DNA of 64,000 bases from Escherichia coli (GTDB lineage Bacteria > Pseudomonadota > Gammaproteobacteria > Enterobacterales > Enterobacteriaceae). Shown piece after piece: positions 57,001-60,000 of the stretch (within the stretch, counting starts at the first letter, position 1; the number at the start of each line of letters is the position of its first letter). The position numbers were made by a program. The DNA is taken from NCBI RefSeq assembly GCF_009931435.1, contig NZ_CP043414.1, one strand, 5' to 3'.

Positions 57001-60000
57001 ATTATATGACTCCGTTACGAAAAGAGCCGAATTCTGATGTTTTTGATCCTCTCCGCGCTGCCTGCCTTTATCTTCGTGACAACAATTACGATGAAGCCTG
57101 CTGGCTGGTTTTCCTTGCCACACATTTCGGCAAGAGTAACAAAACCGGCTGGATTTTGTGTCGAGATATATACAGTGGACTCGGTACACAAACGTGGACA
57201 TGGGATACGATAACTGATGACTTTGCTGCTTTTGAACAATGGTTCGCCAGCGTCTCTGATGAGTTGACAGCTAACAGTAGCCTAAGACAATATGGTAACC
57301 ATCGGAAATATGAAACGAAGAAATATCACTCTCGTCGTTCAATACCTGCGGTTTTTCGCTCTTACATCGGATTCATTGGTGCTACACACAGTCATGAGGC
57401 TAGGTTTGCAGAGGCCAAGAGCTTTTCATCTTCACCAGAATCTTTATTCGAACTATTGTATTCAGGGCTAAATGCCGTGATCTCATTTGGACGAACCGCA
57501 AAATTTGATTACCTAACTATGCTCAAGAAAACGGGACTTCTGGATGTAGAGCCGGGTCATGCTTTTCTGAATGGAGCAACCGGGCCCCTTCAAGGAAGCC
57601 GGCTACTTTTCAGCAATAGCCGGACTGCTGGTGACACAATAGACGTATTGAATGAAAAACTAGCTGACCTTGCGGCAATTATTCCTGCACCCTACTTGAG
57701 AATGCAGGTTATTGAAGATGCGTTGTGCAACTGGCAGAAATCACCTGACCGTTATGTCTATTTCGGCGGCTGATATCAGACGATATCTTCTTTACGGAAT
57801 CTCACTTTAAACCGATTAAGGTGAGAAAAAGGTATATTACCTTCATGCTGCAAATATCCCAGTACGATCCCTTTGGATACCCCCATTTTCCTAGCTAACC
57901 GGATGATCTCTTTCCAATGCCGGACACCATAGCGACTAAGTTGCTGCCGGTATTCTTCTGGGATAAGAACATCAACGGCAAATTTATCTGCTTCCTTTTC
58001 CTCTTCCGACGAAAGACTATCTTTACCTTCTACGCGAACTCGGACAGCTTCATGCAAGATGAGATGCCCAATCTCATGAAACAGCGTAAACCAAAAATGG
58101 TCATCGGTCAGATAACGGAAACTCATGACTAGGGTTGCGCGATCTGGTGTAAAAAAGCAGGTAGCACCACTTGCCCGACATCCCTTTGGCGTTGGCAACA
58201 CAACGAGAGAAACTCCAGCAGTGGCGAGAAGGTCGCGAATGTAAGGGATAAAAATCCTCATGTCGGGTTCATTTGTAGCTTTGCGCAGTTCTGGCAACAA
58301 TGCTATCAGCACCTCTTTATCCCATACAGCACAGTTTTGGTTTGAGGTAAGTTGTGCAGCCCTAGTCAGCCACACCAAATCGGCCATAGGCTCGGTTGCC
58401 AGATTAAGAGATTTACGAAAAGCGACCAAAGGAGCATCTGACTGAATTTTATAAAAAAAATCATTGACGGAATTTATTCCGAAAAACGATAGGCAGTGCT
58501 GGAATTTACTTTCCCGAGTTGTAGTTTTGGGGATCCAACCAAACTCCATCATATCACGTACAGGCAATGATTCGAGCCAATCATTATTCACTTTCTCGAG
58601 GTATCCAATTTGCTGGCGATAAGCGACTTCGCGCTTGATCCAGAAGTCTGTCGATACGTTGAATAACTCCTCAAGCTTACAAGCCAGAGACTCATTGAGT
58701 CGGATTTTTCCTTCAAGAAGTTGCTGACCCCGGATAAGAGACAATCCAATCCTCTTACTCAGTTCTTCACCAGAAAGCCCATGTTCATCCATTAGATCTA
58801 TAATTGTATCACCGGGTGGAGATACCCAGTCAGGCTGGAAGTCCTGCGTAACTATCATTTCACGTCACCTATGAACACTAACCGTATCCGGCTAACTCGG
58901 GACCAGTTAATTGTATTATCTTGATTTTTGGGCTGAACTGTATTCCCACAGACAAATCCCATTTTTACATCACCGAGAATGGTAATTGTAATACACTCTT
59001 CCCCATCCTCAAAGCAGACCTCCGGCGAACCTACGGGCAACAGTAAAATGTTGTCTGTCACGGAAAGATCGGAAAGTCGCGAGCGTAGTCTTGATGCCAC
59101 TTTGTCACCAAAGATCTCATTTGCCTCATGCATACTCTCGCAAATAGTCCTTAACTTCTTGCTTTGAAAGGTAATGAACAAAATTATCCACTTTTATTTT
59201 TCTTGGTTGCTACGTTTATAGCAAACTCAACGCTCATTCACAAAATGAGATGTAGCGAATTAATGGACTCTGCACATATTAAATGTTAATGATGGACTTA
59301 AAATCACGGATTCGTAAGGGAAACATGAAAGGTAAACATCAAGACACTAAAGCCCTGTCTGACGTGCTAGCGGAAATGCAACGGCAGGATGCCAAATGGG
59401 GGGCAGACCGTAATCAAGATCCTTTTATCTGGGGAGCGATTCTCGGAGAAGAGGTGGGAGAATTTCATCAGGCTGTCCTCCATGATCGTTTTGGTGGTAA
59501 AGCAGCCGGTACCAGTAGGGAGGAAGCAGTACAAATTGCTGCTGTTGCACTGCAAATCATCGAATATTATGATCGCGTAATAGATTGATAAATTAGAATT
59601 AATCAACTAAGAGTCTTTTACACGCGAAGATGAACTCTGGCAGCCATCTACCTTCGTGGGCCTGTAGAACACATCTAATTGCAATACTCCCAGTTAATCA
59701 CTAACCAGCCTCTCCAGTAAGGCTGGTCGATTAGGTTTAATTAAACAGATATAACAAGCAATTCACTTGGTATTACGCGGTTCACACAGACTTCTTTAGT
59801 TGTGTCATATCCTATAACTTTCAGAGGCTTATTTACGGTATTATCACGAACGGTGCAAAAGTGGCTCTTCCGCAACCTAGGTGGAGATTTTCATGCCAGT
59901 GGACTCATTACCCTCTGCCTAAGTAGTTCAAATCCGGCTCGACCATACATCAGACGTTTCAGCATCTTCAGGCGATTTACATGACCTTCGACAACACCGT

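Follow-up and report, generated by a model that had tools for sequence, protein, structure and literature searches.

Pairs of a toxin-like gene and a gene for an Xre-M78 fusion, i.e. a helix-turn-helix (HTH) protein carrying a metallopeptidase domain, have been known from sequence since 2009. At that time, the combination of a RelE or PIN toxin with an Xre-COG2856 fusion was recognized as a probable three-component system (Makarova 2009; PMC2701414). PD-lambda-2 of Escherichia coli ECOR42, which defends E. coli, consists of a HigB-like gene (A), an Xre-peptidase fusion (B), and a P4-antitoxin-like gene (Vassallo 2022; PMC9519451). PD-lambda-2B is toxic when expressed alone and is rescued by A, and the third gene is required for defence (PMC9519451). 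Furthermore, HTH-ImmA proteins act as antitoxins of the anti-phage system RosmerTA (PMC10440598), and a VapC-like gene together with a CapH-CapP fusion precedes some DISARM systems (Lau et al.). The M78 peptidases CapP and PprI switch immune or stress operons by cleaving a repressor, upon activation by single-stranded DNA (ssDNA). Here we analyzed a related gene pair in a stretch of 64,000 nucleotides (nt) of E. coli DNA (NCBI RefSeq assembly GCF_009931435.1, contig NZ_CP043414.1; hereafter the window), which comprises a small open reading frame (ORF) of 108 amino acids (aa) and an overlapping gene for an HTH-M78 fusion. The initial annotation of the window had described this as a recurrent toxin/antitoxin or phage-sensing architecture of defence islands, as is indeed documented for the published systems (PMC2701414, PMC9519451, PMC10440598).

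The combination of a toxin-like gene with an Xre-M78 fusion is thus already known; distinct in the present case are a HigB-fold protein without the catalytic residues and a fixed partnership with two enzyme genes, encoding a clade 3 aGPT-Pplase (aGPT-Pplase3) and a MilA-like protein. We propose, with a probability of about 0.5, that the pair constitutes the control arm (sensor and restraint) of a mobile defence cassette of four genes, or five in Enterobacterales. That the pair consists structurally of a HigB fold and a HigA-M78 fusion is very probable, and its membership in a four-gene cassette is highly probable. The initial annotation confined the pair to positions 57776-59181, but it does not stand alone: it forms one arm of a conserved cassette of four or five genes that reaches past these coordinates. 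Its features are the following:

58855-59181, minus strand: small ORF, 108 aa, TTG start, read from the sequence and without RefSeq annotation
57776-58858, minus strand: large gene, 360 aa, ATG start, encoding a fusion of a HigA-type HTH with an M78 (ImmA/IrrE) zinc metallopeptidase
58855-58858, minus strand: 4-bp ATGA overlap of the large-gene ATG with the small-ORF TGA (plus-strand bases tcat)
58634-58816, minus strand: HigA-like HTH domain, ~aa 15-75 of the large protein
57863-58150, minus strand: Peptidase_M78 domain (PF06114, COG2856), aa 237-332; Pfam 9.9e-11, 42 bits vs. a gathering score of 22
58064-58078, minus strand: HEIGH zinc motif H261-E262-I-G-H265 (CAT GAG ATT GGG CAT)

The source sequence is E. 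coli chromosomal DNA and is present at 99% identity or more in 230 of 5,426 complete genomes. Coordinates, the ATGA overlap, and the Pfam domains agreed with the initial annotation, which had listed a 108-aa ORF overlapping an HTH and HEIGH peptidase gene by 4 bp. The overlap suggests that both genes are translationally coupled. The Prokaryotic Genome Annotation Pipeline (PGAP) names the product of the large gene 'XRE family transcriptional regulator' and leaves the small ORF unannotated in E. coli RefSeq genomes.

For the large protein, AlphaFold yielded a model of three parts (predicted local distance difference test score, pLDDT, 89.5; predicted template modelling score, pTM, 0.82). The N-terminal domain matched HTH_3 in Pfam (aa 21-73, 4.3e-05, 23.9 bits vs. 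a cut-off of 23), and its best structural matches were HigA of Proteus vulgaris and of E. coli. CapP (7t5t) and PprI/IrrE (8sln) were structural matches of the peptidase domain, while the helical middle domain (~aa 80-230) had no structural match. H261, E262, and H265 were invariant among 98 homologues and E287, by analogy presumably the third zinc ligand, was conserved in at least 90% of them; the M78 zinc site thus looks intact. The PD-Lambda-2_B model (PADLOC PDLC03982) aligned to aa 15-341 over profile positions 60-378 of 402 (3.3e-30), and judged by sequence the large protein is homologous to PD-lambda-2B over its full length. Matches to other models were shorter: those for RmrA of RosmerTA (4e-10 to 5e-5) mostly covered just aa ~257-303, the capP hidden Markov model (HMM) matched partially (1.8e-10, aa 256-329), and the Lit model matched only the HExxH region.

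The small protein had no match in Pfam (E<=1), PADLOC, or NCBIfam, in line with the initial annotation, which had called its family assignment weak. Among 97 members of its family, only nine matched PF05015, weakly and with 5e-5 at best, and none matched the PADLOC model PD-Lambda-2_A. Alignment of the small protein to HigB with hhalign gave E 4e-4 at a probability of 34%, and comparing the family profile with PDB sequences retrieved no HigB, only chance matches (asparaginase, DISC1). A comparison of folds was therefore required. The AlphaFold (AF2) model of the small protein reached a pLDDT of 94.8, and the best PDB matches found by Foldseek were P. vulgaris HigB chains (probability 1.00, target-normalised TM-score 0.69-0.76, 16-18% identity). 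Such chains made up most of the top 14 matches, followed by YoeB, RelE, and YafQ. The model therefore predicts the RelE/HigB microbial RNase fold, beta-alpha-alpha-alpha followed by a four-stranded sheet, and at the level of the fold the initial designation 'HigB-like' was correct. As the HigA-type XRE HTH is encoded directly downstream of, and overlapping, the higB-like gene, the pair is a higBA module of the P. vulgaris type, with the toxin gene in first place and an overlap of both genes, in which an M78 peptidase has been added to HigA.

To compare the pair across bacteria, one genome per species was scanned, which returned 80 loci; in all, the comparison covered 84 non-redundant loci in which the large gene has a homologue. 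The loci were annotated with custom HMMs and comprise two classes, class I with 55 loci (including the window) and class II with 29, of which 27 provided the residue counts given below. We take His54, Asp90, Tyr91, and His92 to be the catalytic residues of P. vulgaris HigB; the titles of PDB entries name its variants Y91A and deltaH92, and the sequence used in the alignment was verified against 4mct_B. The window protein has E54 at the position of His54, as hhalign also finds, and ends in D106-V107-K108, with V107 and K108 as the counterparts of Tyr91 and His92. Throughout class I the catalytic positions are variable. Class II proteins, on the other hand, have His at the His54 position in 25/27 loci, within a GRPHPLKGDR-like motif, as well as a C-terminal D-Y-H (D 26/27, Y 20/27, H 27/27). 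Accordingly, weak PF05015 matches were obtained for four of five class II examples vs. none of five from class I. A few class I members retain the terminal His or carry R in place of H54, a pattern resembling the decay of a class II-like ancestral form. Compared with P. vulgaris HigB, an insertion of ~12 residues with a conserved Trp precedes the last strand of the small protein. Taken together, the alignments indicate that canonical HigB catalysis is lost in the class I lineage; given the lost residues, the small protein is unlikely to be a classical toxin.

Even though RefSeq lacks it, the small ORF is a real gene. Directly upstream of the peptidase gene, 81 of the 84 loci, from many phyla, carry a homologous small ORF, so that the pairing noticed in this single sequence is conserved elsewhere. 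Citrobacter, Serratia, and further genera have close homologues of equal length, and an exhaustive profile search returned 739 representative clusters (E<=1e-3), almost all of 105-112 aa. Among Enterobacterales, the ratio of nonsynonymous to synonymous substitution rates (dN/dS) was 0.135-0.277 for the small ORF vs. 0.05-0.08 for the peptidase gene. Homologues, clusters, synteny, and dN/dS all argue for a functional protein-coding gene. In the intergenic alignment, all five enterobacterial genera have the TTG start, preceded by a conserved Shine-Dalgarno sequence similar to AAGTGGA; TTG recurs in the small ORF of Vibrio cholerae and in 38/55 class I loci overall. This unusual conserved start is probably why annotators miss the gene, which was annotated in two and unannotated in four of six plasmid records inspected. 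For a family of more than 700 representative clusters, this amounts to a systematic annotation gap.

The enzyme genes face the pair from the opposite strand, and the MazG-like gene lies beyond the small ORF:

56829-57773, plus strand: aGPT-Pplase clade 3 / ADDT-family gene, convergent with the peptidase gene; Pfam PF18746 4.8e-90
55852-56832, plus strand: thymidylate-synthase-family (TS-like) gene; Pfam Thymidylat_synt 5e-25
57771-57778, convergent: tail-to-tail junction of the peptidase and aGPT-Pplase3 genes, 2-nt gap between the stop codons
59283-59588, plus strand: small MazG-like gene in divergent orientation to the small ORF; RefSeq annotation (PGAP start 59325)

Homologues of the large gene in V. 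cholerae, Pectobacterium, and Pseudomonas (39-69% identity) are followed, as in the window, by a convergent aGPT-Pplase3 gene and then a TS-like gene. The aGPT-Pplase3 gene is convergent in all 54 class I loci that could be oriented, and the TS-like gene follows in 49/55. The stop-to-stop distance between the peptidase and aGPT-Pplase3 genes was -29 to +23 nt in 54/55 loci, with a median of -4 and exactly -4 in 18. Stops that abut or overlap leave no room for terminators between the two genes, and a consensus scan found none there. This tail-to-tail arrangement of stops is conserved across phyla. In a neighbour-joining tree built from the peptidase proteins, class I forms a single pure clade (one Fitch change), with members from Pseudomonadota, Bacteroidota, Acidobacteriota, Gemmatimonadota, and Verrucomicrobiota. 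The reverse search, starting from aGPT-Pplase3, yielded ten plasmids, including some of Actinomycetota and Leptospira; all ten have a TS-like gene upstream and a convergent M78 gene, the two partners that were checked in these records. The partnership of the fusion gene with aGPT-Pplase3 and the MilA-like gene is thus fixed in at least seven phyla. The window has the same four-gene order, i.e. small ORF and M78 gene facing aGPT-Pplase3 and TS-like genes on the opposite strand, with stops 2 nt apart. Class II genes have other neighbours, mostly on the same strand: (i) type I hsdS/hsdR; (ii) a type ISP enzyme; (iii) large N6/N4 methylases; (iv) SIR2 with HerA; and (v) an ABC-3C CTD7 protein. Two further genes accompany some class I copies, neither of them in E. 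coli. An extra gene of ~270 aa without Pfam match lies between the aGPT-Pplase3 and TS-like genes in 18/55 loci (e.g. locus L006 6015-6854 and locus L008 9044-9847, both minus strand), and a DUF4031 gene follows the TS-like gene in 13/55.

Enterobacterales copies form a five-gene unit through the divergent MazG-like gene, which was found at the matching position in Pectobacterium, Yersinia, Cronobacter, and Providencia. As a universal member of the cassette the MazG-like gene was rejected, being restricted to Enterobacterales and not found in other loci. The five-gene unit is part of an island in Yersinia and stands beside an integrase and a type I restriction-modification (R-M) system in Providencia. 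Cronobacter carries the whole five-gene cassette in a lambdoid prophage between P and NinB/RusA/Q (L090/L091 4272-8007), a site that is a typical moron or defence slot. Other copies are located on conjugative plasmids, and integrases are nearby in seven loci. The window copy is flanked on one side by a dGTPase defence gene and an IS3 element, and on the other by an ISL3 fragment and a type I R-M system. From species to species the flanks change but the cassette does not; it moves as a unit.

With respect to the enzymes, the TS-like protein matched MilA, a CMP 5-hydroxymethylase (PDB 5b6d), at 1.6e-41 over aa 26-304, compared with 1.4e-18 for the best thymidylate synthase. The RefSeq name 'thymidylate synthase' and the Gene Ontology (GO) terms for dTMP biosynthesis attached to this gene are probably wrong. 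The clades of aGPT-Pplases were reportedly defined by Iyer et al. in 2013. These proteins have a fold like that of helix-hairpin-helix (HhH) glycosylases, and clade 2 comprises amino-acid:DNA transferases acting on phosphorylated 5-hydroxymethyldeoxyuridine (5-hmdU) (PMC8989533). Together with TS-family hydroxymethylases, relatives of aGPT-Pplase make the hypermodified bases that protect phage DNA (PMC8989533). A 5-hmdU kinase is absent at the locus, and no clade 3 homologue was present in 50,697 phage records. An origin from phage self-modification was rejected on the grounds that aGPT-Pplase3 is missing from this phage collection. In the DefensePredictor table (PMC13092281), exactly this TS-like protein (WP_000174035.1) carries the label 'Predicted novel defense gene'. 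DefensePredictor also draws attention to an unvalidated aGPT-Pplase system, one component of which is homologous to a known defence gene (PMC13092281). A defence role is thus predicted, and the cassette is probably defensive.

Candidate promoter elements were located upstream of both operons:

59215-59243, minus strand: putative promoter of the small-ORF operon, with -35 TTGTGA (59238-59243), a 17-nt spacer, and an extended -10 TGCTATAAA within the invariant TTTGCTATAA (59215-59225); from a five-species intergenic alignment and sequence reading
59207-59224 and 59233-59249: inverted repeats with perfect 6-bp arms, TTGCTA-N6-TAGCAA and CTCATT-N5-AATGAG, overlapping the -10 and -35 proposed for the small-ORF promoter
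55792-55821, plus strand: promoter-like site of the hydroxymethylase/aGPT operon, TTGACT ... TGGTAATGAT

The arrangement TTGAC-N-TGnTAAT upstream of the hydroxymethylase/aGPT operon recurs in five Enterobacterales. The putative small-ORF promoter was not picked up by a simple consensus scan, and consensus scanning of the window for promoters and terminators performed no better than on shuffled sequences. Neither of the two E. coli inverted repeats is kept as a palindrome in related genera; they were dismissed as operator candidates for this reason, and no operator is claimed.

Based on these data, a possible mode of action can be outlined. By homology, the HigB-fold protein would bind the HigA-like domain as HigB binds HigA, and the complex of the pair may repress its own promoter. 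Binding of the small protein might keep the peptidase fusion quiescent, in analogy to the neutralisation of toxic PD-lambda-2B by PD-lambda-2A. A cue from infection or DNA damage, e.g. ssDNA as for CapP and PprI/IrrE, could then activate the peptidase, if the behaviour of CapP, PprI, and ImmA is a guide. The activated peptidase may cleave the fusion, its partner, or another target, with an HTH-containing substrate expected from the same three proteins. More speculatively, cleavage could release the nucleotide- or DNA-modifying arm and/or arrest growth, and the hydroxymethylase/aGPT-Pplase3 arm might alter pyrimidine nucleotides or DNA such that phage replication is blocked. The overlapping convergent operons may in addition provide antisense or collision control. 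Within the class I lineage, the effector role would have moved from the HigB RNase to the enzyme pair. The cassette may represent a new kind of anti-phage system, an idea we put forward as tentative: a disarmed HigBA protease switch would gate phage-type pyrimidine modification, carried out by the MilA-like 5-hydroxymethylase, the HhH-glycosylase-like aGPT-Pplase3, and, in enterobacteria, a MazG-like NTPase, whereby the infected cell would corrupt replicating DNA or its pool of nucleotides. In this way, the restriction-evasion chemistry of phages would be turned by bacteria against the phages.

Several observations weigh against a role of the pair as control arm of a defence cassette. The third gene of PD-lambda-2 has no counterpart in the window, the small protein and PD-lambda-2A come from different families, and the operons in the window are convergent while those controlled by CapH/CapP are divergent. 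No operator common to the small-ORF and TS-like promoters was found in six species, in which only promoter-like elements were conserved; without a shared operator and with convergent instead of divergent operons, any transcriptional link between the arms is hypothetical. Class I small proteins have conserved polar residues of their own (R11, E15, H80, D92, and R98), which could form an altered or re-invented RNase site. W93 is conserved as well. H80, otherwise frequent in class I, is replaced by Asn in E. coli, and close relatives switch between H and N at this position. Natural variants are also relevant here. One E. coli lineage has lost 1 nt in a GGG run, which shifts the frame of the small ORF after residue 74 (L094 4001-4255, L095 750-1004) and leaves the peptidase, aGPT, and TS-like genes intact; this variant was present in an NCBI assembly and in an independent assembly of a read set. 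An intact peptidase beside a frameshifted small ORF argues against lethal toxicity of the peptidase without its partner. Conversely, another genome combines an intact small ORF with a peptidase gene split into products of 217 aa and 116 aa (L096 4001-5082). Neither protein appears lethally toxic without its full-length partner, the truncated products possibly still neutralising. Finally, co-inheritance fits equally well with the pair as an addiction module for the enzyme genes, and the data are equally well explained by a regulator of self-serving, Mom-like DNA modification.

Four alternatives were considered in view of these points. The pair alone could be an abortive-infection module of the PD-lambda-2 type, with the Xre-M78 fusion as toxin, the HigB-fold protein as its antidote, and the enzyme genes as unrelated cargo. 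The full-length homology to PD-lambda-2B, the toxicity of B and its rescue by A in that system, and the lost HigB residues, which suit an antidote, speak in favour of it. We nevertheless regard it as fairly unlikely, as the required third gene is absent and the downstream gene convergent, the A proteins come from different families with no member matching PD-Lambda-2_A, and a natural frameshift of the small ORF occurs beside an intact peptidase gene; moreover, the co-inheritance with aGPT-Pplase3 seen in both directions (55/55 in the clade, 10/10 plasmids) argues against unrelated cargo. Alternatively, the pair might regulate a self-serving DNA or nucleotide modification on mobile elements, similar to Mom of phage Mu, in which the enzymes modify DNA of the element or of the host to evade restriction, without an anti-phage role, and in which the pair times or restrains this toxic activity. 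The chemistry of related enzymes, which yields phage-protecting bases (PMC8989533), would be compatible with this, as would the copy inside a lambdoid prophage and those on conjugative plasmids. Against it, though not decisively, stand the lack of clade 3 homologues in the 50,697 phage records, the location of most copies in chromosomal islands or plasmids, often beside R-M and other defence genes, and the scoring of the TS-like gene as defensive by DefensePredictor (PMC13092281); overall, we consider this reading unlikely.

A classical type II higBA-like toxin-antitoxin (TA) or addiction pair stabilising the island or cassette, with a ribosome-dependent mRNase toxin, an HTH antitoxin, and a peptidase degrading the antitoxin, would account for the HigB and HigA folds and the higBA gene order. 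It would also correspond to the three-component RelE and Xre-COG2856 system predicted earlier (Makarova 2009; PMC2701414), and class II sisters keep the catalytic His and DYH, with a residual polar set in class I. It is rendered quite improbable by the replacement of His54, Tyr91, and His92 by E, V, and K in the window, at positions that vary across the 55-member clade, and by Asn in place of the often-present His80 in E. coli. The split peptidase gene next to an intact small ORF points in the same direction, although its HTH fragment could still neutralise. Least of all do we expect an immunity repressor and anti-repressor like ImmR/ImmA that controls excision or induction of the surrounding element. 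Such a function could be deduced from the shared domain pair and from the integrases near seven loci; the conserved neighbours, however, are enzyme genes, or R-M and defence genes in the sister clades, and not integrase/excisionase or phage lytic genes, and the cassette stays the same in species whose flanks differ. A control arm of a mobile defence cassette thus remains our preferred interpretation of the pair.

Other genes around the cassette in the window are the following:

53140-54393, minus strand: dGTPase-type anti-phage gene, HD + HD_assoc; PADLOC dGTPase 1.4e-109
~54523-55720, minus strand: IS3-family element (frameshifted in the RX24 annotation), ending ~70 bp upstream of the TS-like promoter
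59891-60433, minus strand: ISL3 transposase fragment, flanking the MazG-like gene
~61013 to window end, plus strand: DEAD/DEAH helicase gene running off the end; by correspondence with the RX24 annotation

Debris of insertion sequences (IS) is thus found on both sides of the cassette. The dGTPase gene is 1.4 kb away, with the IS3 element between, and was rejected as a cassette member because it is not conserved beside the cassette in other species. Beyond the helicase gene, the RX24 annotation contains type I R-M genes hsdM/hsdS and an AAA ATPase. The island around the cassette is a defence island.

The two classes provide a natural dissection, with sister lineages that have an intact HigB vs. 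a disarmed HigB inseparable from two nucleotide-modifying enzymes. It becomes testable whether the HigB fold can serve as a mere lock on a protease switch, what M78 peptidases sense and cleave, and which role clade 3 aGPT-Pplases have in cells. The locus is therefore a good entry point to the mechanism of modules combining toxin-like and Xre-M78 proteins, and it reveals a widely conserved small gene that annotation pipelines often miss.

Compared with described systems, the locus shares with PD-lambda-2 a small RelE-superfamily gene directly upstream of an Xre-HTH and M78 fusion, in accessory DNA of E. coli. PD-lambda-2A, however, is a HigB_toxin (PF09907; HHpred 99.8%), whereas the small protein of the window belongs to a separate family distantly related to PF05015; likewise, the window pair is tied to a convergent hydroxymethylase/aGPT-Pplase3 operon and has no co-directional third gene. 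HigB-HigA of P. vulgaris (Rts1) provides the best structural match for both proteins and has the same toxin-first order and overlapping genes, but the HigA-like protein of the window is ~280 residues longer, including the M78 peptidase. RosmerTA also pairs an HTH-M78 protein with a small partner encoded upstream or downstream; its RmrT toxins are unrelated, e.g. membrane-depolarising, and the RmrA match is limited to the short HExxH region. The XRE HTH and the M78 peptidase are found again in CapH/CapP, DdrO/IrrE (PprI), and ImmR/ImmA, switches triggered by ssDNA or DNA damage. There, repressor and peptidase are usually separate and divergent upstream of the operon, without a HigB-like partner, whereas the domains are fused in the window and the sensor domain differs (the unmatched helical middle domain).

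Clusters for thymidine hypermodification in phages (dUMP hydroxymethylase, 5-HMUDK, and aGPT-Pplase clades 1 and 2) resemble the enzyme arm in pairing a TS-family hydroxymethylase with an aGPT-Pplase, and in Enterobacterales through the MazG-like gene. They differ from the window arm, which lacks a 5-hmdU DNA kinase, belongs to clade 3, has a MilA-like instead of a dUMP enzyme, and is carried by cells, plasmids, and prophage morons. Closest to the pair are its class II relatives, with the same small-protein family including the Trp-containing insertion, the same fusion protein, and an association with defence genes. Class II pairs keep the HigB His and DYH, mostly have ATG starts, and are co-directional with the neighbouring defence genes. 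In the clade of the window, by contrast, the catalytic residues are lost, most starts are TTG, and pair and partner operon are convergent.

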